The notes beneath the pieces were generated by a model. The model saw nothing but the letters and a program-made list of their open reading frames with translations, searched no databases and was not told the origin of the DNA. From the IMG/VR virus record IMGVR_UViG_3300037067_011569, positions 26,362 to 90,361 of that record: DNA of 64,000 bases, one strand, 5' to 3'. A program made the translations under genes and the position numbers. Of this stretch, positions 11,635 through 54,195 are shown piece after piece; within the stretch, counting starts at the first letter, position 1, and each line of letters starts with the position of its first letter. The stretch is from a virus. Its lineage: Duplodnaviria > Caudoviricetes.

Positions 11635-13731
11635 TTATTCTCCTAAGAGATTTTGAATTGCTTTTTTTACTTTCACTGGATGAATAGTATTAATACAAGG
11701 TGTCATACAGGGATTTTTATCTTGCTGTCCCCAACACCCTGAAGTAATAGGACAAACATCAAGTCTATCAGGTTCAAGTATTATTGATCTTGCTCCATGT
11801 TGCATTCTTGGTTGTGTAACTCTAGCAGGAGCAGGTCCAAATATTGCTACAGTGTTTATACCTAATGCACCTGCTAAGTGCATTGGAAATGAATCAACAC
11901 ATACTGCAATATCTGCCATTGACATCACCCATGCAGTTTCACGCCACGTAAGTTTCCCTCTCAAGTCCAACTCAGCAGAACGAACAGGCCAATCATTTTC
12001 ACTGCCGATCTGAATCACAAACAATGCCAATCCTTTTAAAGCGATATCCAAGTGCTTGTACATTCTATACTGTGGTTGCCCACCTGTAGTATGCACAATA
12101 CACATAGGTCTTGCTGTTGCTAATGTATCATCATCAAAAAATTCAGGTTTGGAAATAGTTATTGATATTTCATCAGGATCTACTTTGCAGAAGTATGGAT
12201 ACATACTGTACAAAGTAAAATCAAGGTTGTTCCAACCACCGGGTAGAATCTTTTCTCCATGAGGATTATAGACAATATCATATTGACCAAATTTATTTTT
12301 ATCCCATGATACAATCTTGTCTATATATTTATTCCCTTCAACAATATCCATGAATACTGGTTGTGTCATATAGTGAAGTGGAATATTAGGATGTCTTTCT
12401 TTTATACCCTTAAGGCATTGTGTTGTCATAAGAACATCACCAGCAGAACTATGCTGTGCAAAAAGAATTGCATTTTCTTTACTTGCTACAGTTTCAATTG
12501 TGTTAGGAGCTAATTCAGATAATAAATTATTTATATCTGAAACACCACACAACCAGTTTTGAGCAGTCTTTATGTTGCTTCTACCAATCTCTTCTCTTAT
12601 TTCTTTTGATTCGTATGACATATTCAACATAGCATCAGCTAAAGAATTAATATTACATGCTTTTGTCTCTATATGAGATTGGCCAAAAGCAGTCATGGAA
12701 TGTAAATATGTTAATTCATCACATTCCACTAAGTACTTATCATTCTCAAACAATTCTATATGGGCAGTGTTTTTTGATGCAATAACAGGCGTACCACAAA
12801 GCATTGCATTAAGAATTGTCCAACTCAAACCTTCTTGAAGTGAACAATTAACAAGACAATCAATACCATTATATATCTCAGCCATTTCAGACTCGGGTAA
12901 TGTAAAATCTTGCTTATTAACAGATATTGACCCCGTTCTGATATCATAATCTTGTACTAAAGAATGTATGTTAAACACACCATTAAAATTGGTGTGTAAA
13001 TAGATGTATGTATTATTATTATTTGGATTTACTATCTCACCAAATACCTTAAGAAACCTAGGCAAATCTTTTCTTACTTGGTTCTTGCCTATAAACCCAA
13101 ATATAAAAATATCATCATTTTCTTCACCACCTAAAATCTTTTTTCTTGCGGCGTTCCTTACTTCAGGTGAGTACTTTTTATATAGATCAGAATCGGCAAG
13201 TGGAGGTCTAAAGTAATGAAGATTTTTTACGACATCTTTCAGAGTATTATACCCATATTCACTGTACACACAAGGAACATCAAAGAAATTGAACCACTCA
13301 CACCAATCAGTTCTTAACTTGAGTAAATCGTAAGGAAATATTCCAGACAATTTTATCTTAAACGCCGATCTTAAATCATCCAGTTGTCTAAAAATATAAC
13401 CGTATCTCCAAATATCTAAACCCACAATTACCATCGCATCATACTTAAACTTCTTTATCAATTCCACTATTTGAGAACCACCATAAACTTCATCATTATG
13501 TGGTGTAAAAGGAATTAATAAATAAGGAAGATTTATTGGAGTAGAAGCAATAACAAATTGAGATTTAGTAGGTACAGTAACACCGAAGCAGGTTATTTCG
13601 AATTTAGTATAATCAATGGTACTTAATAGGGAACGCATCATATTCCCATTTCCTGTGAATGCGTAAGGATGATCTCCAACCAGTAAGATACGCTTCTTCA
13701 CCGGACATAACCTCCAAATTTTCTTCACCAA
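11635..13731 (-). CDS. Fused GT4-like + GT9 (heptosyltransferase-like) glycosyltransferase
   Basis: N-half GKNQVRKD...SLQEGLSWTILNAMLCGTPVIAS; C-half SSAGDVLMTT...LRGKLTWRETAWVM...VCVDSFPMHLAGALG...IFGP. Confidence 0.88.
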   Translation of the reverse strand: MVKKIWRLCPVKKRILLVGDHPYAFTGNGNMMRSLLSTIDYTKFEITCFGVTVPTKSQFVIASTPINLPYLLIPFTPHNDEVYGGSQIVELIKKFKYDAMVIVGLDIWRYGYIFRQLDDLRSAFKIKLSGIFPYDLLKLRTDWCEWFNFFDVPCVYSEYGYNTLKDVVKNLHYFRPPLADSDLYKKYSPEVRNAARKKILGGEENDDIFIFGFIGKNQVRKDLPRFLKVFGEIVNPNNNNTYIYLHTNFNGVFNIHSLVQDYDIRTGSISVNKQDFTLPESEMAEIYNGIDCLVNCSLQEGLSWTILNAMLCGTPVIASKNTAHIELFENDKYLVECDELTYLHSMTAFGQSHIETKACNINSLADAMLNMSYESKEIREEIGRSNIKTAQNWLCGVSDINNLLSELAPNTIETVASKENAILFAQHSSAGDVLMTTQCLKGIKERHPNIPLHYMTQPVFMDIVEGNKYIDKIVSWDKNKFGQYDIVYNPHGEKILPGGWNNLDFTLYSMYPYFCKVDPDEISITISKPEFFDDDTLATARPMCIVHTTGGQPQYRMYKHLDIALKGLALFVIQIGSENDWPVRSAELDLRGKLTWRETAWVMSMADIAVCVDSFPMHLAGALGINTVAIFGPAPARVTQPRMQHGARSIILEPDRLDVCPITSGCWGQQDKNPCMTPCINTIHPVKVKKAIQNLLGE

Positions 13732-21008: not shown

Positions 21009-22880
21009 TCAATAATTACCATAAACCTGCTTTTCTTGTACGTATATACCAAATATAAAAGAAGTAGTACCTCTTTCTCTGAAATTCTCTATTCCTAAAT
21101 TCCTACCTGAAAACATCGCCCAACCCGTAGCAAACATTGAATCATCTTGTATTCCGCCTTTCTCTTCTTTTTCAGGGGAACCAAACCATCTTTTTTCTAT
21201 ATCGTGATCAAATATTTCCATTTCTTCTATCTGTATATCACCACTCTTTGACCCCAATACACCTGTAGGTGCTGATTTAAACAAACCTTTTGATACAGAG
21301 GAATAAAATTCACCGAATGCTGATCTCTGTCTATCATAAGTAGGGAATATAAGATCAAACGATATTTCTCTTTCTGTTGCCCAAGGTTCTAAGTCCCATA
21401 ATCCCCAACGCTCTCCACCTATTGCATCAATCCCATCATATTCAAGATGATATTGATTCAATAGTTCCTTTATGCCTTCCAAAGAGTGGTTTGTTACATC
21501 TTCTAAATGTAAACGTATATACATATAGTTAGGAACTACACCTTCTCCGTAAAACATGAAGGGATTTGATCTGCTCCCAGGTAATCCTTTTGCCAAACAA
21601 GTAACAATAGTTCTAGCAGAGGATCTGGTTTTCATTGGATCTGCACGATCAACCCCTACCAAAATAACCCAATTTGTATCAAACAAATCACCTAACTTTT
21701 TCAAGTCTTCTATGGTTGCTGCTTGATTTTCATACCCATTATTTAGTTGATAGTACTTAGAAATCCTGCCAAATCTCTTCTCTATGTCATGTAACAATGC
21801 CTCATTGCTTGCTCTTGCATCAATATCTTTAACTTCAAGGTCACTTATCTGCTGCAACATCCTATTTTTTTCTTCAAGCAACTCAATTACCTTATCTTGA
21901 CTGCCAAGATGTCCATCAACAGAGTAAATAGACATTGCCTCTATCATTTCGTCCGAAAAAACACGAACTTTTCCTGCTGACCACAAGTTCTTAAAGAACT
22001 TTTCAAACTCACCAAAAGGAAACTTGACTTTGTAGCCGTCAAGTTCCTCTTGCGTCATGTTTGGATGCCACCAATCGTTTTGATTCCCTTCTTCTGAGTA
22101 CCTATACGAATAAAATATGTTCTCTGTACCAGGTTTTTTCTCTACTTTGTCTCTCCACATAGCATAAAGAGGATGTTGCTTTGGTGAAACGGTAGAATCT
22201 ATTACACCAAGAGCATTTGCAATAGTACGAATAGAACCGTCAAGCTCCACAAAAAACTTTGGATTCTTCATGGAGAACATTTCAGAGAATGTGTAACCCG
22301 TAATATTTGAAACAATCCCTGAAAAACTAGACAATGCTCTTATTGTACTAACTATTCCCCCTCTTTTATCTCTCAAAGTTATGGATTTTTGTTGCACATT
22401 CTTCCAACCAACAATGCCCAATAGTCTTGGTGAGTTCTTCACTATATCAGACATAACATCAAAGTGGACAAACTTAATCTGATCTTTGCTATTTGCACCA
22501 AGAACTATATCTTGTTTAGGCCAACAAAAGAACTTCCATAACTGTATAAGACAAGCAAGGAACGATTTACCTTCACCTCGCATCCAACAAAAAATGAGAA
22601 GTCTGTAAACAAACCTCCCATTCTCCATCTTCAAAGCTTCTCGGACAAGCTTCTTTTGTTCATCCCACATTTGCTTATAACTTCTACCTGTCTTAGGATT
22701 TGGTGTATCAGGCAGGGAATGAACTGGTACCCATCTCGCAATATCAGAGCCTTCAGGGTATATTTTGATACAAACATTTTCTTCACACCAATATATAAAA
22801 CCTTCTGCTCCATCTCTATACTTCTGAAGTTTTGTAAGTTCTGGTTTCTTGATATTTCTTCTTCTCACGATGGGTATCAT
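21009..22880 (-). CDS. terL: Terminase large subunit
   Basis: RGEGKS Walker A, GANSKDQ, DST motif III, VGVD and QDDS nuclease acids. Confidence 0.88.
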   Translation of the reverse strand: MIPIVRRRNIKKPELTKLQKYRDGAEGFIYWCEENVCIKIYPEGSDIARWVPVHSLPDTPNPKTGRSYKQMWDEQKKLVREALKMENGRFVYRLLIFCWMRGEGKSFLACLIQLWKFFCWPKQDIVLGANSKDQIKFVHFDVMSDIVKNSPRLLGIVGWKNVQQKSITLRDKRGGIVSTIRALSSFSGIVSNITGYTFSEMFSMKNPKFFVELDGSIRTIANALGVIDSTVSPKQHPLYAMWRDKVEKKPGTENIFYSYRYSEEGNQNDWWHPNMTQEELDGYKVKFPFGEFEKFFKNLWSAGKVRVFSDEMIEAMSIYSVDGHLGSQDKVIELLEEKNRMLQQISDLEVKDIDARASNEALLHDIEKRFGRISKYYQLNNGYENQAATIEDLKKLGDLFDTNWVILVGVDRADPMKTRSSARTIVTCLAKGLPGSRSNPFMFYGEGVVPNYMYIRLHLEDVTNHSLEGIKELLNQYHLEYDGIDAIGGERWGLWDLEPWATEREISFDLIFPTYDRQRSAFGEFYSSVSKGLFKSAPTGVLGSKSGDIQIEEMEIFDHDIEKRWFGSPEKEEKGGIQDDSMFATGWAMFSGRNLGIENFRERGTTSFIFGIYVQEKQVYGNY

Positions 22881-22882
22881 AA

Positions 22883-23533
22883 TTACTTCCCGTTATTCAA
22901 AGAAGTTTTGAAGTTCATACTAAAAGGATCTCCTACAGGCTCAGTTTCTTTCATTAATTCTGATACATAATCATTATCATCATTGCTTCCACTGCTTCCT
23001 AGATCAAGCAATTCCTTCTCTTTTTTCTTCATCAAATCTGTCAATCCTGCTACTGATTTTGGATCTATGGCTAGTTTCTCAGCAGTGTAGTAAATTGCTT
23101 TCATTGTTTCTCTGATCTCTTTAAATATTGGATGAACGTACTTGCTTTTTCCTACACATATAATATCTTCTAATCCAAGACCTGCTTCAACAAGTTTGAA
23201 CTTACACAATTGAACAAACAAAGGTGTAAGATGCATACCAAAACCATATAGTTGAAATTGATCCCATTCTTCCGCATATGCTTTCAACAATGTATTGGAT
23301 GCAGTCTTAACATATTGCATCTGGACAGTACATTTATGTTCATTGGTTTTGTTTTCTGCTGGACATCTTTCGTAGACAGGACATTCTTCTACAGCACAAA
23401 CTCCCACAATATCCCATGATACTAAAGTTTTTCCTGCAAAGATTCCCCCATGAAATCCAAGTTCCCCAAATTTTCTTTCAAAGCGATCTGGTAATTTACT
23501 TCTTCTGTTTTTGCTAATCATTTCTTTCTCCAT
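22883..23533 (-). CDS. Putative terminase small subunit
   Basis: First gene of the late operon directly upstream of terL; Cys cluster CAVEECPVYERC. Confidence 0.5.
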   Translation of the reverse strand: MEKEMISKNRRSKLPDRFERKFGELGFHGGIFAGKTLVSWDIVGVCAVEECPVYERCPAENKTNEHKCTVQMQYVKTASNTLLKAYAEEWDQFQLYGFGMHLTPLFVQLCKFKLVEAGLGLEDIICVGKSKYVHPIFKEIRETMKAIYYTAEKLAIDPKSVAGLTDLMKKKEKELLDLGSSGSNDDNDYVSELMKETEPVGDPFSMNFKTSLNNGK

Positions 23534-23650: not shown

Positions 23651-24088
23651 ATGCAATTAACTTATTACATGGGGGATACATTGAAAAAGGAAAGTAAGTT
23701 AATAAAGCATGGGCACACAAGAGGTGGCATAGAATCAATCGAGTACAGAACATATTCAGGGATGAAGAACAAGTGTTGTAATCCAAATTATGTCAGATAC
23801 GATCTTTATGGAGGAAGAGGAATCACTATTTGCGAAGAATGGATGAATTCATTTGAACAATTCCTTATTGATCTAGGACCAATGCCTGATGGTGCAGTAC
23901 TTGGCAGAATTGATGAAAACAAAAACTTTGATCCTGAAAATGCTAGATGGATGAGTAAGGGAGATTATATAAGATCACTTCCTTCTTCTTTTGGTTATAG
24001 AAAACATCCCAGAATGTCTGCAAAGAAAAGAAAGCTCCAAGAGATGCTTGCACTTATTCCAATTAAAAGGAGAAACAATGGTAACTGA
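23651..24088 (+). CDS. HNH-like homing endonuclease homolog, probably degenerate
   Basis: KHG...MKNKCCNP...YGGRGITICEEW...F..F..DLG...LGRIDENKNFDPENARW. Confidence 0.7.
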   Translation: MQLTYYMGDTLKKESKLIKHGHTRGGIESIEYRTYSGMKNKCCNPNYVRYDLYGGRGITICEEWMNSFEQFLIDLGPMPDGAVLGRIDENKNFDPENARWMSKGDYIRSLPSSFGYRKHPRMSAKKRKLQEMLALIPIKRRNNGN

Positions 24089-24514: not shown

Positions 24515-24859
24515 ATGCCTACTAGAAACATTCTTTCTTACGGAACACATCCCCCACCAAAGATTGATTACGAAGGTCAATGGTTTCTCAGAGCTATAAA
24601 ACATGAAGCTAAAAGACTTGAAAAGAAATACAACCATAAACCTAAATACATTCTTATGGATCAAACCACTTATCACCACATAAGAATGTACCTTCTTTCT
24701 ATCAACCTGGAACATGAAACCCATAGATTCTACCCAGACCAATTATGGGACATGAAAATAGTTATCTATCCGATAAAAGACAGAACCATACTCAAGTTAG
24801 TAAGAACACCTGTACAGGAAGTGTGCTACCCAAATGATAACACTAAGGAGTACATATGA
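24515..24859 (+). CDS. Hypothetical protein
   Basis: GAG SD; coupled to the next ORF. Confidence 0.5.
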   Translation: MPTRNILSYGTHPPPKIDYEGQWFLRAIKHEAKRLEKKYNHKPKYILMDQTTYHHIRMYLLSINLEHETHRFYPDQLWDMKIVIYPIKDRTILKLVRTPVQEVCYPNDNTKEYI

Positions 24860-25128
24860 CTTTCACCACCTTCATTATTTGTCCCAGCAATGATATTTAT
24901 AACCTGTACCTAAAGTCATTAAACATTAAAACCAAAGAAGAGAAACAAAGTTACCAAAGACTTACAGAGAAAGATCAATTAAATGGTTATGGTAATTTCA
25001 ATGTAATTGTCATAGAATCAAATCACCAATACTTTACTTTTGAGAAAACAGTTAGGATATTAAAATACGTAAACTACCTTCAATCTTTAAAAGCTATCTC
25101 ACCAATAAAAAGAATCACCAAGTTTTAG
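24856..25128 (+). CDS. Hypothetical protein
   Basis: AAGGAG SD; ATGA overlap. Confidence 0.5.
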   Translation: MTFTTFIICPSNDIYNLYLKSLNIKTKEEKQSYQRLTEKDQLNGYGNFNVIVIESNHQYFTFEKTVRILKYVNYLQSLKAISPIKRITKF

Positions 25129-25132
25129 TATC

Positions 25133-25196
25133 TGTTTTATCTGGAGCTTGTAGGGATTTAATAAAAGATTAGTTCCTTACAGTTCCAGATAAAACA
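25133..25196 (+). terminator. Long hairpin closing the small plus-strand cluster
   Basis: TGTTTTATCTGGA / TCCAGATAAAACA 13-bp perfect arms plus an imperfect inner stem, 4 nt after the stop. Confidence 0.5.
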
Positions 25197-27073
25197 ATAA
25201 CAAGGTTTCTATTCAGCAATGATAACAATTAATTCCCTTCCTCTTTTAACAATCATTATCTTGGTTCTTATTCAATATATATACCTTATAATTCCCTTCT
25301 AAATAAATCAATCCCAAAACACAAAATGATGTTTTAGACTACTCTAACTAAGACTTTTACACACTAAAATCATCACTGGAACTAACAGGAATTAATTGCA
25401 ATAAAGCTTTAATAAGAACCAAATAAGTTTGGTTCTTATCTTTTCTATTCAAATACTTATTCAGTAAAGTTCCTTAGTTTTTATATAATTATTGGCACTA
25501 AAAAATAAAAACAGTAAAAAATCAGGACATAATAAACATCACTGTAGAGTCTACTTTTAGACTACTCTGATTAAACAAAGATAAGATAAATAAATCATAG
25601 CATCCCTGTATCAGGGATTAAGTTTAAATCAAATGGAAGTTCTAACTGTAGTAAAAATACTATTTTCAAAAATAAAAAGTCCCAAAATAAAAAGAAGGAA
25701 AACATAGTAAATAGAAAAGGGAGGGGGTAGGTTGGTAGTAGATAAAATAAAAGATTCAGTAAGAAAAAGAGTAGTAAGAATATAAAGCAGAGTTGTTCCC
25801 CTTGTTGGTAAGTAAAGTTTATTATTGTTCATTTTATTGGGAGTAGTTAGAAGAAAGTATATGCATAAATGGGAGGAGTTAGTTTGATTGTTATTTTGCC
25901 GGGAATAATTATGTAATTAAAATTGGTTTTATATGTAGTAAGGAAAAGTATTTTATGTAGTTATTTTATTGGGAATAATTATGATCGGTACCCCCGTGCT
26001 GCTGTCTGTCCATTTCTTTTGAGATAGAACGAGGGGGTATCTCTTTATCTAATCATTTCAATAGTTTAGCTGATATAGCGTCTGATATTGTATGTTATGT
26101 AAACTTGTAATGATATCGCATAGTTAGCTATGCTTATGTTTTCTGATTACAATAAGTGCATATACACTAACTATATAAGCGCAAAGCATGATATCGCTCG
26201 CTTTGCTCGCTTACAGTGCAACGCTTCGCTCGCTTTGCTCGCTGTAGTCGCTTGTCTTACTTCGCTTGTTGTAGTCGATTACAGCAACTTGTCTTTGTCT
26301 TCACTACTCGCTTTATTCACTCTTACAATTCGCTTTGTTTTCAATATTATTTACTCTATCATTATCACAATTGTTAACAATGTTGTTAAAAGTGACAAAA
26401 ATTGTCACTCGGTTACAGTCTACATCACATGATATAGTGTTTCTATCTTGATACAACACTTGACAAAATGTGATAAGTTCTTTTCTGTTTTTAACTAAAT
26501 AACATCACTTTCCTGATATAGTTTAACGATATATAGTAATAATTATGACAATAATCATTCTTCAATCAACGATCGGCTATGCAAACGAAGTAGAGTACAC
26601 TCTCAATTTTGCTCTGCTCAAAATGCTTAAAAACGATGTTAGAATCAATATTCAACTTTTTGCATATAAGCTTTTGAGTGAAGAGATTGTTAACAATGTT
26701 GTTTATGAAAGTAGTCTACTTTTTACTGTTTTCAATATTGTTAAAGATATTGTTAACAATTTGCTACTTACTGTATAAAACTACTTTTTCTTACTATTCT
26801 GATTAGACTGATTTAGTTCTCTTTTCAGTACAGTACAAAAAGTAAGTAGAATAAGAATTTTGCAAAGTACTTTGATTTATCTGTTTTTTCTTACTTTATT
26901 GATTTTACTTGTTTTGCTTTAATCTATACTGAATCTATAGAGTAAGTGCTACAAGACGTTTTAACGCACGCTAGAACACGAATTATGAACTATGCAGTAC
27001 AATGCTTTTCATTATGCTGCATCGTTTCTGCATAAGCTTTTGAGTGCTTTCTTAAGAATGATTCTCTTTTGCA

Positions 27074-27181
27074 CAGTTTTATGTGCAATGCACTGTTTTA
27101 TGTGCAATTTCTTGATTCTTTAGTTATCTCAATAAGTTAAGTATGTTTTCGAGTAAAAAATTGCACATGTTTATGTGCAAT
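27074..27181. repeat. TTATGTGCAAT repeats (direct x3, one inverted copy)
   Basis: Copies ending at 27089, 27108 and 27181; ATTGCACAT at 27160-27168 forms a palindrome with the third copy. Confidence 0.8.
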
Positions 27182-27982
27182 GACGAATAATTCTTCTATT
27201 CTGAACTAGTAAAAATGAACTTATTTTTACGAGTAAAAATAATGCTTTATCTTCTTTTTTGTTTCTAAAAGCGGGTATAGCATAAAATTTGCATTCTCTT
27301 TTGTTCGTGCTGACATATAGTCAGAGACTCTGAAAGTAAAAGCTCATGAGAAATAGAGTGAAGAGACTTTGAACGAAGTCTCAACTTTCAGAGAAAGCGA
27401 ATAACTGCTAAATTCTTTCTCGTTTGACTGTAGAGTGACTACAGACAAGTTGAGTAGCAGTGAAGAGCAACAGTGAACGCATTGCGTTTTTCGTGTGCTG
27501 ACTAGTGAAGAGAAAGCACAAGCGCAACTATGTAAAACGTGTGAGTAGACTAAACACGTTGCGTAAATCAGATTCAAAGACTGTTGTAGTTATGCGAAAG
27601 ACAAGAGAATTTAGCTTATCACTTTCGAAGTAGCATGCTGAATCTAAGCATTGCGAAATTGACAATTTAATCTGATTAACAAAAAGCAAATAGCTTGTTC
27701 TTGTGCTATTGCTATGCGAGTTAAAGCATAGATTGCACAAAGCGAATAGAAAGCTAGTGCTTAGTCTTTTATTGCTGCTATGCAGATATGTCATTATTAC
27801 AGACTATAGGGTAAGAACTATAGATAATGATTAAACGTCTTTACTCTGCTATTCGCATAGATAAGATAATAAATCGAATCTAAAGCATAAAAGACTGATT
27901 AAAATACATAACAAGAGCATTTATACTTTATGCTTTTTGCTAATCAGATTTTCTCTTTTCTCTTTTCTCTTGACTCGTAACA

Positions 27983-28016
27983 AAAAGAGATAGTAGCAAT
28001 TGCTACTATCTCTTTT
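27983..28016. promoter_or_regulatory. Perfect 34-bp palindrome
   Basis: AAAAGAGATAGTAGCAA|TTGCTACTATCTCTTTT; bidirectional terminator or operator. Confidence 0.75.
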
Positions 28017-28049
28017 CAATATGCAGAGTAAGAAAGTAGAGCAAATATC

Positions 28050-28232
28050 ATGTTAAAAGACAGAATATTAAATGCTACAAGAGATTTTCTTAATGCAAAG
28101 AATTCTAGTAGACTACTTATCAGCAATTTTGAAAATGAAATTGCTGTATGTAAGAATTTTAATGAATACAAAGAAAACAAAGAACTAAAAGAACTTGAAT
28201 CACTTATTAATAAGTTCAAGTCAATTCTTTAA
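28050..28232 (+). CDS. Small protein with no Gly/Pro/Trp
   Basis: 60 aa; purine-rich leader without GG. Confidence 0.55.
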   Translation: MLKDRILNATRDFLNAKNSSRLLISNFENEIAVCKNFNEYKENKELKELESLINKFKSIL

Positions 28233-28305
28233 TCTTACATACTCTGCATGTTGATAAGAGATAGATTGCAATGACTTCTATCAGTCTTTTAAGACTAGAA
28301 AGAGA

Positions 28306-28527
28306 GTGAAGAATTTGATTATTCGAGTATCTGATACTTTCAAGTCTAATCTTAGAAATAGCATAGATAGACTTGAAAATCGTAGCAAAGTAGAACTTGA
28401 GAAAGATTTTTTTGACAAGTTCACTTATGCACAAGATAGTTGTGTTGCATGTAATTCTGATTTAAAAGACTTTTCTAGCTTTTATTGTCATGAATGCGAG
28501 AAAGTGATTGCTAAACTGAAGAGATAA
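28306..28527 (+). CDS. Small Zn-ribbon protein with no Gly/Pro/Trp
   Basis: GTG start; CVAC...CHEC. Confidence 0.6.
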   Translation: MKNLIIRVSDTFKSNLRNSIDRLENRSKVELEKDFFDKFTYAQDSCVACNSDLKDFSSFYCHECEKVIAKLKR

Positions 28528-28568
28528 GTGCTTTTAACTTCTAACGTCAAAAGAAAGAGAGAAAAATC

Positions 28569-29030
28569 ATGAAAACGAGAACTGTAGTTCTGAGAAAGAA
28601 AAACAATGTCGTTTCTACTGTCAATGCAATTGACAGTGATGCACTTGCAATATTTGAAGACAAAAAAGCCTTCATTGCAATGAAGGCTTTGAAAAGTGCA
28701 ACTGATTTACTTGAAGAGAGGCGTGCAACACACTATGCGAACAAGTACGAGATTGCACGTGAAGTTGTGAAGAGTGTAGTGAAGAGCAACAAAAGAGCAA
28801 AGTCAGAAAAACATGCGTGCGTTAGTTATATTGAATCACTGATCGAACAAGCACGCTATACACACAAAGAGATACTTGCTAGTGCATGCGTAATGTTTTC
28901 TGATTTAGCACGAATCACGATTGCAACGTATCTTTCAGACTCGAAAAACCCATCTGAAAAATACGGATTCAGACGACATAAGTTCTCAAGACTTGCGAAA
29001 ACTGACAGCAACAAAGTTATGCATTATTAG
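28569..29030 (+). CDS. DSKNP-domain protein, paralog 1 (putative DNA-binding)
   Basis: C-terminal domain aligns with 31199-31900 and 50021-50671; GG-less leader AAGAAAGAGAGAAAAATC. Confidence 0.85.
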   Translation: MKTRTVVLRKKNNVVSTVNAIDSDALAIFEDKKAFIAMKALKSATDLLEERRATHYANKYEIAREVVKSVVKSNKRAKSEKHACVSYIESLIEQARYTHKEILASACVMFSDLARITIATYLSDSKNPSEKYGFRRHKFSRLAKTDSNKVMHY

Positions 29031-29037
29031 CAGCTAG

Positions 29038-29075
29038 TGCAGTCAGCTAGAGCATTCGTGTTCTGACTGACTGCA
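29038..29075 (+). terminator. 17-bp hairpin with UUCG loop after paralog 1
   Basis: TGCAGTCAGCTAGAGCA-TTCG-TGTTCTGACTGACTGCA. Confidence 0.6.
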
Positions 29076-31198
29076 TTATGATGCATGTAATGTATTTTGA
29101 GAAAAGAGAACAAAAGCTAATAATATCAGTGATTTAGCTTGTCATTGACATTGTAGAGCAATGGTAGACTCTTTTTGCACTTTTTGGGGAAGAATCTGCA
29201 TTGCAGAACTATGGACAAATCACTGAAACGATTAGCTATATACAGAATTGTCAGCTATTTTGGAGATTAGTGCTGCATACAGAATTTCTGGGTGTTTCTG
29301 AGATAAATTGGAACATACAGCAAATTGGGGTATTTTTGGAGTTAATTTAATTTCAAGAGAGAAGGAGAAAAACATGGTACTTTATTTTAATGTGCAATGT
29401 GTAGAGTGTAATTTGTGGATGAAAGAAAGTAAAGAAAGTAATCTTTCGCAGGTGGCGAGGTACACCTGCACTAAATGTGGTAAAGTTGTAGAAGTATCTT
29501 TGGATATAGATGCAGATTAGCAAAATGTGGAGTGTTGTGTTCTTTGGATACAACATTTCACTTGTGCTAGTGTGCTTTGGAGTTAATCTACTGACAAGAG
29601 AGAAGGAGAAAATTATGAAATTTAAGGTAAAAGTGTTGTTCGAGAAAAAATGGATGTTTGTTTCTGGAACTAAAGAAGAATTGGAAATTTTCTTCGACAT
29701 ATTCCAGATTGAAAGGTTTGCTCTCTGCTAATTGCGGAGGTGTATCATGAAAAGTTGGTGCCAACATCATGGAAACGAACTTCATGTATACTGCAAACTT
29801 AGCTATTTTCTGGGGAAAAAGCTTTCAAGGAAAATAGCTAAGTTTTGGGGGAAAACTTTTCTTTACAGGAATTTCATTTATTAGTCGGAGGATTAGAAGG
29901 ACGTATGAAATATCAAATTTGTAGATTGAATGTCTGGAAAGCTATAATCCAGACATTCTGTATACAAGTCTGATAGTAGGATGAAGTGATTTTGATCTAA
30001 ACTTAAAACAAGAGAGAAGAGAGAAAAAATGGGAAGTTTCGTAATTAATCACGGGGTAGAATTTGATGTGGATGAAAATTTTGTGGAACTCTTTTCAAGA
30101 AGAGAAGATGGAAGAATCATTCTGCAAATTCGGGAACTGGAACAATTAGTAAAAATGGCAAAAGCAATGAATCAGGAAGAATATGTGTTATTTGAGGAGG
30201 ATGAAAAAGAAAGTCAATTTTGTACGATGGAAAACGGTGTTCTCTGTCACGGTTGCGGGGAATGTGAGAAATAACTATTGAACAATGGTGAAAGGTGTTA
30301 TTTGAGGAAAATGACATCTTTCTTGGTTGTTTGGTAGAAAACAATTAAACAAGAGAGGAGAGAGAAATGGTTGAATTAAAAGTAGAAGTTTTAACATTGT
30401 CCAAAAAAGTGGCGGAGTACATTCCAATTCTTCATCTCGGAATGAAAGAAGAAGATTTGGCATGGTGGGACAATGCAGAAGGTTTAGGAGTTGTTTTCAA
30501 TGCAAAAGGATTGTCTTTTGCATATGGAAATTCAGAAGCTATTCTTCTGAAAAAAGAAGGCAAGTATGCTTGGACTGTTTTTAGAAGTAACCGAGGATTG
30601 GACTCAATTATTCTGAAATAGTAGATAGGTGAGAATCAGTATGATTTAAAGGATTATACTGATTCTCTTGTATCTACAAAAAGTAGGAATAAACAAAAAC
30701 AAGAGAGGAGAGAGAAAAAATGGTTGAAATCTCAAAAGAAAATGAAAGAGGTGGATTACGTCTTTATCGTAATGTTGGTGACAGAAAAAAAGGGATGAGG
30801 TGGGCAATTAAACGAGGATACAATTACTTTGTTGGATTTAAAGATTGCAATCACACACATCCTGCTGGACTATCTTACGGAAAAGCTGATTGGGTAGCAG
30901 AAGGTAAAATTTACGAAAAAGACGTTCTGGTTAACAGAATAATCCACTAGGAGAAAAACAATGGAAACATACTATGCAGTACATTGGACTCATGGTGTAG
31001 CAATGTTGGTAGGATTCGGATTGGGGGCAGCAGTTTTTACTGCCATGTATGCAAATCTGATGTTTAAGGTGAAAAGAACTTTGGAGAGAAAACAACAGTA
31101 GATTAGCAAAACGTCAAGGATTAGGAGAAATTCTAATTTTTGACTTGTGCTAGTGTACTAATGGAAGTTAATTCTAAACAAGAGAAAAGGAGAAAAAA

Positions 31199-31900
31199 AT
31201 GGAAAATGAAGAGAGAATTACTATGGCTGTGGATCTTCTGAATCAAGGTGTGGCAGAGGATGAAATTGTAAAAAGGCTTAGGTTTGCTCACAAAGTCAAA
31301 GTCAAAGAAGCTTCTGCAATTCTTCTCCAGGCGATGGAAAGAACTAGGACTGCAACTAAACAAGTGACAGGAGATCCTGAACCAACAAAAGAAGAAAGCA
31401 CAGAAATTATTGCCCATACTGAAAACTCAAATACTTCTGAGGAGAAAGTGGAAGAGTTGAGTGAGGTAGAAAAAGCAAAACAATGGGCAGGTGAGGGAAA
31501 TGACATGCCATGCTCAGTGTACGGTGAGCAAGACTTGTCAGACCCTGGATGTGATGCTTGCAAACGTGACTGTCCAGTAACCTTTGCTTTCTGTTCCGTG
31601 TTGTCTAACAAGCCGAAAACAGTGAAGAAAGTAGCTTCGACAACAGGGGATAAAACGTCGAGAAAAAGAGTCAAAGGTGCTGGGTATGAGAAGGTCAAGT
31701 ACATAGAAGGCTTGATCACTGAAGGGACACATACCCAGAAGGAGATTGTTGCTCTTGCGATGGAACAATATCCTGAAGTTAAGAGAATCACTATTACTAC
31801 CTACATTAGTGATTCTAAGAACCCATCTGAGAAATATGGGTATGCAAGGCATGGATTCAGTTCACTTGCAAAGGTGACTGATGGGAAACTTCATTACTAG
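31199..31900 (+). CDS. DSKNP-domain protein, paralog 2
   Basis: Helical N-domain, Cys cluster (CSVY...CDACKRDC...FC), C-terminal EGTHTQKEI...SDSKNPSEKYG domain. Confidence 0.85.
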   Translation: MENEERITMAVDLLNQGVAEDEIVKRLRFAHKVKVKEASAILLQAMERTRTATKQVTGDPEPTKEESTEIIAHTENSNTSEEKVEELSEVEKAKQWAGEGNDMPCSVYGEQDLSDPGCDACKRDCPVTFAFCSVLSNKPKTVKKVASTTGDKTSRKRVKGAGYEKVKYIEGLITEGTHTQKEIVALAMEQYPEVKRITITTYISDSKNPSEKYGYARHGFSSLAKVTDGKLHY

Positions 31901-48870: not shown

Positions 48871-49257
48871 ATGATAACAGTTACCAGAAAGTTTGAAGTG
48901 TGTATTGCACATTGGTTGAAAGATCATCCTGGTAAGTGCAAAGACTTACATGGACACAATTTCCAGGTAGAGGTTACAGTAACAGGAAACTTGAATAAGA
49001 ATGGAATGATTGTTGACTTCTCTGAATTGAAAGGTATTGTACAAAATGTTCTTGATGAAATAGATCATAAGTGCCTTAACACAAGATTCCCAATGATGAA
49101 TGATCAGCCCACCGCTGAAAAAGTTGTGGATTGGCTTGCATGTGCACTGATACAAAAACTTTTACCATTGAATATTTCTCTAGTACTTGTCAGGTTGTAT
49201 GAGACAAGCAATTGCTTTGTTACTTGGGTCAGGGAATACTGGGGGAAATCAGAATGA
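48871..49257 (+). CDS. queD: 6-carboxy-tetrahydropterin synthase
   Basis: AHWL...CKDLHGHNF...DFSELK...DHKCLN...PTAE...YET. Confidence 0.93.
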   Translation: MITVTRKFEVCIAHWLKDHPGKCKDLHGHNFQVEVTVTGNLNKNGMIVDFSELKGIVQNVLDEIDHKCLNTRFPMMNDQPTAEKVVDWLACALIQKLLPLNISLVLVRLYETSNCFVTWVREYWGKSE

Positions 49258-49910
49258 AAACTTTGAATGTTAATTCAATATACACTTCCATAGATGGTGA
49301 GGTGAGTGTATTCGGACAAGGAAGAATTAGTACATTTGTACGTCTGGCGCAGTGCAATTTAAAGTGCCAATGGTGCGATACTACATATGCTCAACATAAA
49401 AATTCGGGCATAGATATTACTGTGGAAGAGATAGTAAAAGAAGTGGTGGCGAGAAATGTTCACAAAGTAACTATTACAGGAGGGGAACCATTATTACAAG
49501 ATAATGTGTTCGAACTAACAAAGCAATTGTACCAAGAATGTGTGGATGTAACAATTGAAACAAATGGAACAATAGAGCCTTTTGGATATGAAGTAAGTTC
49601 ATACATTGTAGATTTTAAATTGCCGTCATCAGGAATGCATGAACAAATGAACCCTGATGCATTCACAAAATTAAGGGTATGTGATTTTATCAAGTTTGTT
49701 ATAGATGACATAACAGACTATGAGATTGCAGTAAAAACGGCAAAAGGTTTTAGGGATTTAGCATTGATGGCACAGTTTGCATTCTCCCCTGTGTTTAGGG
49801 ACAATAATTATTGCATAAGTCCACAGGAATTGATGGAACGGCTTAGGAAAGACAGGTTAGGTAATTCTTATATTAATGTGCAATTACATAAACTTCTCAA
49901 CCTTAAGTAA
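49254..49910 (+). CDS. queE: 7-carboxy-7-deazaguanine synthase (radical SAM)
   Basis: Start reassigned to 49254; SIDGE, CNLKCQWCDT, TGGEPL, ETNG, VQLHK. Confidence 0.93.
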   Translation: MKTLNVNSIYTSIDGEVSVFGQGRISTFVRLAQCNLKCQWCDTTYAQHKNSGIDITVEEIVKEVVARNVHKVTITGGEPLLQDNVFELTKQLYQECVDVTIETNGTIEPFGYEVSSYIVDFKLPSSGMHEQMNPDAFTKLRVCDFIKFVIDDITDYEIAVKTAKGFRDLALMAQFAFSPVFRDNNYCISPQELMERLRKDRLGNSYINVQLHKLLNLK

Positions 49911-50020
49911 AAAAGTGTAACTGCCACTAGAAAATTGAAAAATTTTCTCGGCAATGTGCTATAGTAAAAATGAAAGCAGAAAACACAAACAAAACAACCT
50001 AACAGAAAGGGACAAAGTGT

Positions 50021-50671
50021 ATGATCTCTCTTGACCAAATCGACAGCAAAGAATTGAAAGTGGCAGTAACCCAGATTAATGAAACCGCGCTTGTCGAAAA
50101 GATGCGTACAGTTGGTGTGTCGAAAGCCGATCAGATTAAGAAATTTACCGAAGCTTTTGATACTTTGCAGCAAACAAATCTTGCTGTATTGCAGGAGAAG
50201 TGTAAAGATGCAATCCTGTTTTACAATAAGATTTACGCTGATGAAGTTGAAGGTGGTGGGACCACTGAAGAAACAAAAGAAGAGCCTGTAGTAGAAGAGA
50301 AGAAAGAAGAGAAACCTGCTAAGGAAAAGAAAGAAAAGAAAGAGAAAGTTGAAAAGCCTGCAAAAGAACCTAAGTCCGTGAAAGAGAAAGTCGAAAAAGT
50401 AAAGGAAGAAAGAGTTAGTAGAAAGGGACAGACACCTGATCAGATCACAGAAACTGCGGGTAAGCGTTATGAGCTTATGAGTAAACTCGTGGGTGAAGGG
50501 AAGTACACAAAGAAAGAGATTGTGGAGCTTGTTAGAAAAGAATTCCCTGCAATATCTTCTATCACTATTGTCACCAATCTCACTGACAGCAAGAACCCGA
50601 AGTATAATAAACTTTCGAAGCTTGCCTCTGAAGTAGAGAAAGACGGAAAGAAGATTTTCGTTTTCGCTTAA
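50021..50671 (+). CDS. DSKNP-domain protein, paralog 3, inside the que cluster
   Basis: KE-rich linker then EGKYTKKEI...TDSKNPKY; own extended -10 element upstream. Confidence 0.8.
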   Translation: MISLDQIDSKELKVAVTQINETALVEKMRTVGVSKADQIKKFTEAFDTLQQTNLAVLQEKCKDAILFYNKIYADEVEGGGTTEETKEEPVVEEKKEEKPAKEKKEKKEKVEKPAKEPKSVKEKVEKVKEERVSRKGQTPDQITETAGKRYELMSKLVGEGKYTKKEIVELVRKEFPAISSITIVTNLTDSKNPKYNKLSKLASEVEKDGKKIFVFA

Positions 50672-50687
50672 TCCCAATGCATTAAAA

Positions 50688-50723
50688 ATTGTAGATAGTG
50701 GCGATATCGCCACTATCTACAAT
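50688..50723. promoter_or_regulatory. Perfect 36-bp palindrome
   Basis: ATTGTAGATAGTGGCGAT|ATCGCCACTATCTACAAT. Confidence 0.8.
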
Positions 50724-50734
50724 AAGGAGTAATC

Positions 50735-51937
50735 ATGTGTAGTATCTGCGGGGGAACCAAATGGGACTACATAGCAGAACATATATGGGAAGAATCAAAA
50801 GATAGAGGAAGAGACGATTCTGGAATTAAGAAGTTGCCAAATGGATCTTGGATTGGTAATCATAGAGCAACACCTACAACAGAGATTGAAAAGCCGACAG
50901 AAAGGCAACCAGTAGGCTATGATCCTTATATAGTTTTTAATGGCATGATTGCTAATGACGATGCACTTGGAGCAAGACCCGGCGAAGCTGATACTTCTGT
51001 TTTGCCAAGAGTTTTAGATTTTTCTTCTTTGGAAGAATTTCATTATAGTCTAAAACAAATAATGGGCTCCTACGCAATAGGTGCAATGTTTAAAGATGGT
51101 GAGATTTGGCTTGCTTGTAATTATAAACCTATTTGGATTCTTGAATATCCAAAGAATTTTTATTTCTCTTCTCTTCGTCAGCATTTTCCAATAGAAGTTA
51201 GAAGATTAGCCTATCGAATGAACCCTTACTCAGTAAGAATCCTTGAAGATTTCAGATCATCAATTAAAATAGAAAGAAAACAGTTTGATTCTGCCCTAGT
51301 TATTTGCTCTTCTGGGCTAGATTCAACTTCTGTTGCTTCGTATGTTGCACAAAAACATTCCAAAGCTACTCTTCTTCACTTTGATTACAACTGTAAAGCA
51401 GGATCTAAAGAAAAGAGCAGTATTGTAAACATAGCGGAGTACCTGGGATGTGATTACAAAATACTAACTATCCCCCCTGTTTTATTTGGTGATTCTTCCC
51501 CTATAATGAACAACGAACTAAAGATATCTGAGGGAAAATCAGGGGTGGAATATGCACATGAATGGGTGCCAGCTAGAAACTTGATTATGTTATCAATGGC
51601 TGTAGGTTACGCTGAAGCATACAATTACGGACATATCTATCTTGGAACAAACTTGGAAGAATCAGGTGCATATCCTGATAATGAAGAACAATTTATTCTT
51701 GATTTCAAAGGTTTGCTGTGGGGAGCAGTACAAGAAGGAGTTAAGATTCAAGTACATACACCACTTGGCGGACTTATGAAACATGAAATAGTTAAGTTCG
51801 GGTTAAAGTACAATGCACCTTTTCATCTTACTTGGTCATGCTACGAAGGAGGAGATAAACATTGCGGAAAGTGTGGTCCATGCTTTATGAGGAAAACTGC
51901 ATTTGAAAGAAACGGAATGGTAGACCCAGTATTTTAA
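50735..51937 (+). CDS. queC: Glutamine amidotransferase-QueC fusion (Gat-QueC)
   Basis: N-terminal MCSICG Ntn Cys, RGRD, FNG; SSGLDS; VPARNL; YPD; TWSCY...HCGKCGPC. Confidence 0.93.
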   Translation: MCSICGGTKWDYIAEHIWEESKDRGRDDSGIKKLPNGSWIGNHRATPTTEIEKPTERQPVGYDPYIVFNGMIANDDALGARPGEADTSVLPRVLDFSSLEEFHYSLKQIMGSYAIGAMFKDGEIWLACNYKPIWILEYPKNFYFSSLRQHFPIEVRRLAYRMNPYSVRILEDFRSSIKIERKQFDSALVICSSGLDSTSVASYVAQKHSKATLLHFDYNCKAGSKEKSSIVNIAEYLGCDYKILTIPPVLFGDSSPIMNNELKISEGKSGVEYAHEWVPARNLIMLSMAVGYAEAYNYGHIYLGTNLEESGAYPDNEEQFILDFKGLLWGAVQEGVKIQVHTPLGGLMKHEIVKFGLKYNAPFHLTWSCYEGGDKHCGKCGPCFMRKTAFERNGMVDPVF

Positions 51938-51946
51938 GGAGTTTCA

Positions 51947-52513
51947 GTGAGAACACGAAATATAAGAAAGTTCCTATCTGAAGACCTGGGTCTTGATCTT
52001 ACTGACCCAAACTTGAAAGATACACCAAATAGAATATATAAAATGTTTTCAGAGGAGTTATTGTGTAACTCTGATTGTGAGTTTCCTGGATTTACAACAT
52101 TTCCTAACACAAAAAAATATGATCAGATAGTTGGCTTGGAGCTTATAGAGTTTGTCTCTGTATGTTCTCACCATTTTATTCCTTTCTATGGAACTGCTTG
52201 GTTCTACTATATTCCTAGATATGAATTGGTAGGAGCAAGTAAACCTGCACGTTGCATTCTTCATTATGCAAAAAGACCACAACTCCAAGAAACTTTGTGC
52301 CATGATGTTCTAAACAAATTTATGGAATTAGTTCGTCCGATAGGTGCAATGATCTATTTGAGTGGTAAGCATGGTTGCATGTCACATAGGGGAGTGAAAC
52401 AACCAAATATGCAAATGTCCACAAGTGCGGTAGCTGGTGCATTTAGAACAGAAAAAGAAATGGAATCAAAAGCATTACAGATGATTCAAATATCTCTCCT
52501 GCACAACAAATAG
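51947..52513 (+). CDS. folE: GTP cyclohydrolase I
   Basis: DTPNR, SVCSHHF, GASK, RPQLQE, HGCMSHRG. Confidence 0.93.
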   Translation: MRTRNIRKFLSEDLGLDLTDPNLKDTPNRIYKMFSEELLCNSDCEFPGFTTFPNTKKYDQIVGLELIEFVSVCSHHFIPFYGTAWFYYIPRYELVGASKPARCILHYAKRPQLQETLCHDVLNKFMELVRPIGAMIYLSGKHGCMSHRGVKQPNMQMSTSAVAGAFRTEKEMESKALQMIQISLLHNK

Positions 52514-52526
52514 AAAAGGAATTATA

Positions 52527-53057
52527 ATGACAGAGGATTTAAAACCCAATACTTTTGGCTGCAATATATCATTTGAAAAAGTCCCAAATACTCAATATAA
52601 TCAACCATATACGAATATATTGGAATGTTTTCCAAACGAGTTTCCAGATAGACCCTATGCAATCAAGATTGATTACGAAGATTTTTCTTTTATACAACCT
52701 AGCACTAATTTACATAACCTAGCAGTGATTGAAATAAGTTATGTTCCACAAAAGCTTTGCTTAGAAACTGAATCATTATCAAGTTATTTATTTGCATATA
52801 AAGATCATGAAGACTATTTGGAAACTATTGTTAACACAATTTATCAAGATATTTGCAACAGAATTGATCCTTTGCACTTGCAAGTAAAAGCAGAACTTGA
52901 TGAAAGAGAAGGAATAGGACTATCAATAGTTGTGGACAGTGATTATGTGAATGCAATGAATAATCTAATAAGGAATCAACAAAAAGAAAACATAGAAGAT
53001 GATAAGCCCATGGCAAATGCTGAGTTTCTTGATAAGTTACTTAACGGGAAGGAATAA
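52527..53057 (+). CDS. QueF-fold protein with degenerate active site
   Basis: Ungapped match to the QueF pattern (LE.FPN...DR.Y...ISY.P...E..SL..YL), but the catalytic Cys and Asp are replaced. Confidence 0.8.
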   Translation: MTEDLKPNTFGCNISFEKVPNTQYNQPYTNILECFPNEFPDRPYAIKIDYEDFSFIQPSTNLHNLAVIEISYVPQKLCLETESLSSYLFAYKDHEDYLETIVNTIYQDICNRIDPLHLQVKAELDEREGIGLSIVVDSDYVNAMNNLIRNQQKENIEDDKPMANAEFLDKLLNGKE

Positions 53058-53322
53058 TGATGCCATTCTATATCATGGAACAAGTCAAATTAGATATAGT
53101 ATCAAATCATGAGATAGAAAGAAGAAATATTACTTGGGGTGATATTATGTATATAGTTTTCTTTGGTGTATTATTTCTTGCTATTGAATTTGCAATAAGC
53201 TTTTACGATTGGTTGCAAGAAAAAGCAACGGAGTAAACTATGCCATTCATCTTTGGGTTTATACTCGGGAGCATTTTTGGTATTGTTTTGGTGTGTTGTT
53301 GTGTAATTTCAAGGTGGAAACA

Positions 53323-54195
53323 ATGAAAGTAATACTTGATAGTGGTGCTTTCAGTGCCTGGATGAAACAAACAGAGATAGATATAGAGGCTTACGCCAAT
53401 TTCTGTTTGGCCAATCTTGATCACATAGATTACATTGTTAATCTTGATGTTATTCCAGGTAAGTGGGGAGAGAAAAAACTAACACAAGAACAAGTTATCG
53501 CTTCTGCAAAGAAAGGATGGGAAAATTATCGTTACTTAGTAAACAAGGGACTTCCAAAAGAAAAGATAATTCATGTATTCCATCAAGATGAACCTTTTTC
53601 TGTGTTAGAAAGAATGGTATATGAATTTGATTATATTGGATTAGCACCCTCAAAAGATAGAACAACACAAGAGAAAATTCAGTTCCTTGATGTTTGCATG
53701 AATTATGTTTGTCACTCGGATGGAATGCCAAAGATCAAGTTTCATGGATTTGGTGTAACATCTATGCCTATTTTGTTTAGATTTCCTTGGTTTAGTTGTG
53801 ACAGTACCTCCTGGGTTAAGTTCGGGAAGTATGGGATAGTTCTATTCCCAAAAAGAAAATACGGAAAGTATCGTTATGACTTATCGCCATATACAATCAA
53901 AGTTTCTTCACGCTCACCTGCTAAAGCAAAAGCAGACAAGCACATAGATACCATGTCACCTACAGAGAATGATTGGTTTGTATCTATGATTGAAGAAAAA
54001 GGATTCAAGCTTGGACAAAGCTTCTTTGAAACTAATGAGAAAGGGAAACAAGTTGAAATAGTAAAAGAAGAAGGATTATCTAATAGTGGTGTGCAAAGAG
54101 ATAGATGGAATCTTTTGTATTATCTTAATATAGAACAAAGTGTTCCAAAGTGGCCTTGGGCCTTCAAATTTGAAGATAAACACACATTATTCTAA
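53323..54195 (+). CDS. dpdA: DpdA/TGT-like DNA base-exchange enzyme
   Basis: Start reassigned to 53323; ILDSGAFSAW, NLDVIPG, HVFH, HGFG, SCDSTSW; in a preQ0 cluster. Confidence 0.82.
   Translation: MKVILDSGAFSAWMKQTEIDIEAYANFCLANLDHIDYIVNLDVIPGKWGEKKLTQEQVIASAKKGWENYRYLVNKGLPKEKIIHVFHQDEPFSVLERMVYEFDYIGLAPSKDRTTQEKIQFLDVCMNYVCHSDGMPKIKFHGFGVTSMPILFRFPWFSCDSTSWVKFGKYGIVLFPKRKYGKYRYDLSPYTIKVSSRSPAKAKADKHIDTMSPTENDWFVSMIEEKGFKLGQSFFETNEKGKQVEIVKEEGLSNSGVQRDRWNLLYYLNIEQSVPKWPWAFKFEDKHTLF

Follow-up and report, generated by a model that had tools for sequence, protein, structure and literature searches.

A zone nearly free of GG and CC dinucleotides beside a packaging-like site in a DpdA-encoding phage

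In phages of the CAjan and iggy type, guanines in DNA are modified by DpdA, a TGT-like DNA guanine transglycosylase that chooses its sites by the 3' neighbor of the G. The DpdA of CAjan modifies GA and GGC (PMC7544227) and that of iggy modifies GA; 16.5% and 30% G modification are quoted for known DpdA1 enzymes, and deazaguanine shields DNA from restriction enzymes and Cas9 (PMC10484667). The subject here is a zone at positions 26041-29162 of a 64-kb window of phage DNA (positions 26362-90361 of the 90,361-bp IMG/VR record IMGVR_UViG_3300037067_011569), in which GG and CC dinucleotides are almost absent. The phage encodes the same modification proteins as those of the CAjan and iggy type (DpdA, FolE, QueD, QueE and a QueC-type protein), and the 3'-neighbor rule fits the dinucleotides that are banned in this and other zones, but for that type, zones free of the motif or saturated with it have not been described. 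Literature searches yielded no description of such zones.

Other comparisons are offered by leading DNA in T5 and T7. The first-step-transfer DNA of T5 carries pre-early genes and no EcoRI sites, and the leading region of T7 carries gene 0.3. These are terminal segments with first-expressed genes, as the zone may be, and like the zone they avoid a word relevant to survival. Here, however, the banned word is a dinucleotide whose loss costs three amino acids, other palindromes remain, and both the terminal position and a stepwise entry are putative. The general lack of restriction sites that marks first-step-transfer DNA is not seen either: GCATGC and ACTAGT occur twice each in the zone, GTTAAC three times and AAGCTT twice, and only GG/CC and, weakly, GATC are missing. 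In Chlorella viruses, methyltransferases are paired with frequent cutters or nickases that have 2-4-nt sites, for example CviPII, which recognizes CCD. These systems are similar in that DNA marking of very short specificity is encoded by the virus and nearly all DNA carries sites; unlike there, a nuclease of that kind was not found in this phage. We know of no local site-free zone in Chlorella viruses. Restriction-site avoidance and depletion of protospacer adjacent motifs (PAMs) of clustered regularly interspaced short palindromic repeat (CRISPR) systems in phages (Kupczok and Bollback 2014, PMC4246573) also amount to selection against a short DNA word. Such avoidance is mild, genome-wide and directed at 3-6-mers, whereas the depletion here is nearly complete within sharp local limits and leaves the word at normal frequency elsewhere. 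Genome-wide motif loss, as expected of PAM depletion, is not found, since observed/expected (O/E) ratios outside the zone are ~1.06-1.07 for GG and ~1.15-1.16 for CC (0.98-1.23 in relatives).

Extent and inheritance of the zone

The zone contains 13 GG or CC dinucleotides, against ~167 expected from its own composition (G 539 and C 481 of 3122 nt). They are located at 26411, 26512, 26575, 27273-4, 27809-10, 28669, 28685, 28720, 28949-50 and 28965, the same ten sites from which the initial annotation had proposed a nearly GG/CC-free zone, and its two fully free stretches of ~700 and ~860 bp measure 698 and 859 nt; further free runs reach 535 and 375 nt. For the longest of these the chance expectation is E=5e-23. 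Outside the zone, the longest GG/CC-free run in the whole genome is 97 nt, and the zone is thus unique in the genome. Both of its edges, predicted to be sharp, were found where they had been placed, the left one directly 3' of GGGGGTA at 26040 and the right one at 29163; the 500-nt windows flanking the zone have GG/CC O/E ratios of 0.9-1.65. The G+C content is 0.33 in the zone and 0.37 outside.

The purge affects both strands equally, extends to promoters and 2 kb of non-coding DNA, and is independent of reading frame. In the three zone genes, GG or CC is present in 1.4% of codons and at 0.7% of codon junctions, compared with 13.4% and 8.3% in 15 neighboring genes. Because GG/CC is almost absent from the zone DNA, the zone proteins are nearly devoid of Gly, Pro and Trp (0.6% Gly+Pro+Trp vs 10.8% in the neighboring genes).

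Relatives were collected by TerL, which has relatives in more than 300 IMG/VR contigs and no match among 50,697 cultured phage records. When the zone, its 153-aa protein or TerL was used as query, blastn, megablast and tblastn returned no close cultured phage relative, and the longest GG/CC-free run found in SSU5 is only 154 nt. A GG/CC-free run occurs at the same place in 20 of the 33 related loci that have at least 2.5 kb upstream of TerL, counting runs with a local expectation of at least 12. In L001 (78% TerL identity), it comprises 2,630 bp with zero GG/CC, and in relatives at 51-53% TerL identity the runs are 1,146, 1,024 and 1,017 bp long. There is one zone per near-complete genome, except that the weaker G007 has a few short adjacent runs, and the open reading frames (ORFs) in the relatives' zones all have zero Gly, Pro and Trp. 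Judging from these loci, the GG/CC-free zone is inherited within the family. Many independent metagenome contigs have the same zone in this position, which rules out an assembly artefact and with it the chimeric join that would have undone the initial proposal. In relatives with a short zone, the zone is a single unit that starts with a near-consensus sigma-70 promoter and ends with an intrinsic terminator; in L074, for example, the promoter reads TTGACA-N16-TATACT.

The left edge of the zone adjoins a conserved set of elements. On the TerS side, the order throughout the family is a C-run, TATCTCAAA, GGGGTACC or GGACCTCACCA, and then the often-repeated AAATTTTTTCCCAA; the window version occupies 25831-26040, and its TTATTGGGAATAATTATG-like repeat corresponds to a family-wide CAYAAATTTTTTCCCAA repeat beside TerS. 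The zone-edge combination of C-run, TATCTCAAA and GGGGTACC/GGACCTCACCA is present even in relatives with 47-55% TerL identity, and in L001 the C5...TTTGAGATAGA..G5 element is kept although its flanks diverge. An HNH gene beside the terminase genes and a conserved repeat-bearing site beside TerS are features of HK97-type cos regions. Because of the packaging-like element and the adjacent HNH gene, the region resembles one used in cos-type packaging, and the zone would be its terminal segment. Many contigs of the family begin 0.9-1.7 kb upstream of TerL, in or near the zone, where strain variation or low coverage may break assemblies. Contig starts do not coincide with the conserved packaging-like element and are uninformative on genome ends.

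DpdA and the dinucleotides banned in a second terminase family

The phage had been described from its sequence as one with 7-deazaguanine DNA, and a full module of preQ genes and dpdA is indeed encoded in the window. DpdA and preQ0-pathway genes are both present, which by gene content places the phage among those with a Dpd system. The window DpdA is 30-40% identical to DpdA of Queuovirinae and other phages, and its tblastn matches are annotated DpdA or tgt genes in 244 phages. All complete relatives encode dpdA; the search for a dpdA-less relative among complete genomes found none, and for this reason the family offers no dpdA contrast. In-frame stops (2 TGA, 1-2 TAA, or mixed) occur in the DpdA matches of G006, G038/G046, G040 and G041, which may reflect pseudogenes, frameshifts or recoding.

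Among 22 long contigs collected by DpdA and scanned whole, a GG/CC zone was found in G027, which belongs to the same family as the window, and GC zones were found in G015 and G018. The latter two have a terminase family unrelated to that of the window, and their GC-free zone, partly also free of GT/AC, lies directly upstream of TerS. Within this second family, GC (with GT/AC) is banned in G015, G018 and G030, and GA/TC (with GG/CC) is banned in G029, L277 and G031, the local expectations for the free runs being 13-42; many other relatives are zone-less. A 560-nt GC-free run in G032 (L299), with a local expectation of only 6.7, was not counted as a zone.

The ban varies with the type of DpdA. 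The DpdAs of G015, G018 and G030 are 58-67% identical. Those of G029 and G031 share 53% identity with one another and only ~30% with the first type. Each of the two groups is a strongly supported clade. All of the TerL proteins, by comparison, are 68-70% identical to that of G018, and the two ban states and zone-less relatives are intermingled in a quick TerL tree that carries no support values. The banned classes are all of the form "G plus 3' neighbor" (GG/CC, GC, GT/AC and GA/TC), and none of the other six symmetric dinucleotide classes was seen to be banned. This is the form in which known DpdA enzymes choose their sites, a G selected by its 3' neighbor. Two points are new here: in two families the zone is linked with a packaging-like site, and in the second the ban co-varies with DpdA type.

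Three minor observations concern this second family. The G018 zone is located at ~3355-5423 in L226, and the G018 ORF 24681-25091 encodes no Ala or Thr and a single Val. No homology was detected by hhalign between the second-family zone ORF and the winged-helix domain encoded in the window's zone. In G030 (L313, L317), the DpdA frame has 676 aa, and a ~300-aa insertion, which may be an intein or inserted domain, parts two homologous halves.

Readings of the zone

It is probable that the zone is matched to the phage's own DpdA. The initial annotation had gone further, taking GG as the DpdA target and the zone as an unmodified window. The modification gene module, the adjoining packaging-like site and the co-variation of ban and DpdA type in the second family favor that proposal in part. 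The specific version, with GG as the target and a zone left unmodified in an otherwise modified genome, is put forward tentatively, at somewhat less than even confidence. In such a model, the zone would be a chromosome segment beside the packaging site, with repeat-rich regulatory DNA and a small operon ending in a winged-helix gene. Selection would strip G followed by G, the presumed target context of DpdA, from both of its strands, and it would stay free of 7-deazaguanine, the remaining genome being modified. Host RNA polymerase and sequence-specific proteins could then read the unmodified segment alike on incoming (modified) and newly made (unmodified) DNA. The zone would also escape nucleases that depend on modification, and it may be the part of the genome that enters the cell first.

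Several findings are consistent with this model. A requirement for one specific neighbor would mean that ~20% of G is modified, as estimated from dinucleotide counts, which fits the known DpdA1 enzymes. The normal frequency of GG/CC outside the zone shows that GG does the phage no general harm. In G018, some stretches are purged of GC alone and have normal GT/AC, which fits removal of a main target better than a need for every G to be modifiable.

More broadly, and with slightly less assurance than the match to the phage's own enzyme, it seems likely that some DpdA phages write one terminal segment of regulatory DNA and early genes without the dinucleotide context of their own DpdA, the banned step reporting the specificity of the enzyme (GG here, GC/GT or GA/GG in the second family). 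If so, phage genomes would be organized on a principle new to phages, with a segment that has its own modification state built in, and sequence alone would be enough to tell which motifs are modified in uncultured phages. Views of the transcription, regulation and packaging of modified DNA, and of its recognition by host defences, would be affected too.

A number of points weigh against the GG-target model. GG as the target, the purpose of the zone, its first entry, and the motif and polarity of modification are all inferred. The TerL-family DpdAs are 32-74% identical and do not form one clade, yet all members ban GG/CC; G014, G016 and G020 have closer DpdAs, yet lack the zone. Neither a motif-free nor a motif-saturated zone was found in CAjan (motif GA/GGC; no GA/TC-free zone) or in PaMx25, and the other 19 of the 22 DpdA contigs have no zone, so that DpdA phages do not in general require a motif-free window. 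The co-variation in the second family comprises five genomes and two states, with a ~1-in-10 chance of a perfect match, and a shared host shift could also explain it. Finally, the enrichment of GC and CG in non-coding zone DNA, and the slightly lower frequency of the banned steps across the genomes of banning lineages in the second family (GT/AC 0.74-0.80 vs 0.87-0.97; GA/TC 1.0 vs 1.12-1.25), would both be better accommodated by a model of opposite polarity.

In that alternative, which we consider doubtful, DpdA cannot modify a G that precedes another G. The zone would be purged of such sites so that every G on both of its strands is modifiable, which would give a completely protected segment at the packaging-site end, and the packaging signals would be GG/CC-rich and remain readable. 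The O/E ratio of GC is 1.75 in the zone and 0.98 elsewhere in the genome, that of CG is 0.88 and 0.45, and the relaxation of CG is seen in all of the relatives' zones as well. GC and CG are enriched ~2-fold in these zones; because the enrichment is strongest in non-coding DNA (GC O/E 1.84), it is not codon compensation. The intergenic flank on the packaging side (25129-26040) is biased in the opposite direction (GG 1.65, CC 1.75, GC 0.6, CG 0.22). The mild genome-wide rarity of the second-family banned steps can be counted for this alternative too, as can the slightly closer relation of the GC/GT-banning DpdAs to that of CAjan (33-42% identity vs ~31% for the GA/GG-banning group) and the known protection by deazaguanine against restriction enzymes and Cas9 (PMC10484667). 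The model would, however, need an enzyme that accepts any neighbor but G and modifies ~80% of G. To our knowledge, there is no precedent for this among DpdA1-type enzymes. The GC-only part of the G018 zone keeps normal GT/AC, so that some of its G would escape modification; the rest of the window's genome shows no loss of GG/CC; and the protection of a single segment is left unexplained unless DNA entry is stepwise.

It may instead be that the zone is a defence-free leading end unrelated to DpdA, in which the first-entering DNA lacks a two-letter word read by the host, for instance a PAM (CC for type I-F, I-B or I-A CRISPR systems, NGG for Cas9) or the site of a frequent-cutting nuclease. Such DNA could then have its early genes expressed or evade the acquisition of spacers, much as the first-step-transfer DNA of T5 avoids EcoRI sites. 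This appears unlikely. In its favor, no short PAMs are, as far as we know, more common than CC and GG, zones adjoin a packaging-like site in both of two unrelated terminase families, the zone forms a sigma-70 promoter-to-terminator unit in the short-zone relatives, and GATC is low in the zones (2 vs 8 expected). Against this, GG/CC in the other 87 kb is as frequent as expected or more so, and matches there would be equally lethal, and close relatives in the second family switch between a GC/GT and a GA/GG ban in step with DpdA type. GC, GT and GA are not, as far as we know, PAMs. Two GCATGC sites are located in the zone, with 0 vs 4.6 expected elsewhere, and because GCATGC occurs only there, the zone is not generally cleaner of restriction sites. 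A more general idea of restriction stealth was rejected, as 6-mer palindromes with and without GG/CC are avoided to the same degree outside the zone (Mann-Whitney p=0.70). As a separate observation, several palindromes are rare outside the zone: AGATCT (0 vs 24 expected), AACGTT (0 vs 9.7), GTGCAC (3 vs 15) and CTGCAG (5 vs 21).

An RNA-level reader (RNase, CsrA or Rho) or a mutational process, such as a context-specific deaminase eroding CC on single strands, would agree with the GG-free ribosome-binding sites of the zone and its somewhat raised AG and CT (O/E 1.26 and 1.35), but is highly improbable, given that both strands are purged alike down to non-coding DNA and promoters, that G+C is kept and GC and CG rise, contrary to deamination decay, that the second family bans the self-complementary GC, and that the ban holds across proteins less than 50% identical (19-20 of 147 without Gly, Pro or Trp).

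Genes and sequence elements in and around the zone

The late operon runs leftward from TerS and TerL through the protease and major capsid genes. The HNH gene and small genes run rightward to 25128; beyond the zone, the + strand carries the early and replication genes. The first 2 kb of the zone has no convincing ORF and is dense in repeats. Ribosome-binding sites in the zone are of a GG-free, AGAGAG type. No Rfam family was detected in 25000-30000, no tRNA genes were found, and promoter-like matches in the window are no commoner than in shuffles. The features are listed in Table 1.

Table 1. Features of the window in and around the zone, the modification genes and the winged-helix paralogues (window coordinates)
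Feature	Coordinates	Strand	Basis or remark
TerL	21009..22880	-	phrog_2 + phrog_9; marker for collecting relatives
Putative TerS	22883..23533	-	216-aa ORF directly upstream of TerL; assigned by position only
HNH endonuclease	23651..24088	+	phrog_3377 E=1e-27; adjoins terminase genes
TTATTGGGAATAATTATG-like repeat, three copies	25831..25983		repeats D11, D17; candidate terminase-binding site
C5...TTTGAGATAGA..G5 element	25988..26040		left zone edge; candidate cos/pac packaging site
GG/CC-free zone	26041..29162		13 vs 167 expected; unique in genome
Iteron-like 9-nt CTCGCTTTG-type repeats	26190..26321		repeat families D1, D2
Palindromic operator-like sites, TTGTTAACAA x3 + GTGACAAAAATTGTCAC	26362..26762		D4, D6, I4, I8
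Three TTATGTGCAAT repeats	27069..27182		D5, I2
Non-coding blocks, 77-78% identical to L001	27621..27973		blastn and alignment A3
Perfect 34-nt palindrome with flanking T-runs	27983..28016		I16; terminator-like, bidirectional
60-aa ORF without Gly/Pro/Trp	28050..28232	+	flanked by 31-nt inverted repeats (I1)
73-aa CxxC...CxxC zinc-ribbon protein without Gly/Pro/Trp	28306..28527	+	translation
153-aa winged-helix protein (1 Gly, 1 Pro, 0 Trp)	28569..29030	+	AF2 model
Hairpin after last zone gene	29035..29078		I20; zone end ~85 nt beyond
Winged-helix paralogue	31199..31900	+	outside zone; 9.9% Gly+Pro+Trp (P0003)
preQ genes QueD, QueE, Gat-QueC, FolE, QueF-like	48871..53057	+	PF01227, phrog_2389, radical SAM, PF06508 fused to amidotransferase
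Third winged-helix paralogue	50021..50671	+	between queE and gat-queC (P0005)
DpdA, TGT-like DNA guanine transglycosylase	53209..54195	+	phrog_887 E=8e-45

The TerS candidate has no family match. Several of the zone elements have counterparts in L001. In place of the operator-like sites, L001 has three copies of ACTGACAATTATTGTCAC, and in place of the 34-nt palindrome it has a different hairpin with a T-run; a homologue of the zinc-ribbon protein is encoded in its zone. The conserved non-coding blocks contain a (TTTTCTC)3 tract and a hairpin whose stem letters differ from those in L001 with pairing kept. The two blocks are better conserved with the nearest relative than the coding part of the zone is.

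The 153-aa zone protein is modeled (AF2, 111-sequence alignment, pLDDT 85) with a long helix ahead of a C-terminal winged-helix domain, in which residues 80-153 (pLDDT 93-98) form a three-helix bundle and a beta wing; an earlier AF2 model from 7 sequences (pLDDT 62) was discarded. By this predicted fold, the protein is of the winged-helix DNA-binding type. VIA-align gives Z scores of 6-7.9, of a kind that the tool calls common, to cullin WHB, BlcR, MecI, Rpa2-WH, ArgR and PadR domains, and Foldseek against the PDB returned nothing at E<=0.001 (E above 0.8). Both paralogues outside the zone have a normal Gly/Pro content, and in the zone copy those positions are substituted. The paralogue between queE and gat-queC may regulate the modification system or serve it as a DNA-binding partner.

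A word-based homologue search matched the query protein alone. A profile search found 147 family representatives with pairwise identities below 50%, in which the Gly/Pro/Trp content is bimodal: 19-20 have zero and most others have 4-15%. The 19-20 are natural proteins rewritten without Gly, Pro and Trp across deep divergence, a rare case in which a DNA-level rule overrides protein composition, and they form a reduced-alphabet set of winged-helix domains.

Three further observations lie apart from the zone and the modification genes. A family-A DNA polymerase of 1,280 aa is encoded at 56855-60697; its nearest protein-atlas clusters, which combine PolA with a uracil-DNA-glycosylase domain and intein/LAGLIDADG parts, are all viral and give no pointer to a host. 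The intergenic flank at 25129-26040 includes an 832-nt CG-free run. Within the late operon, a 698-aa glycosyltransferase is encoded at 11635-13731.

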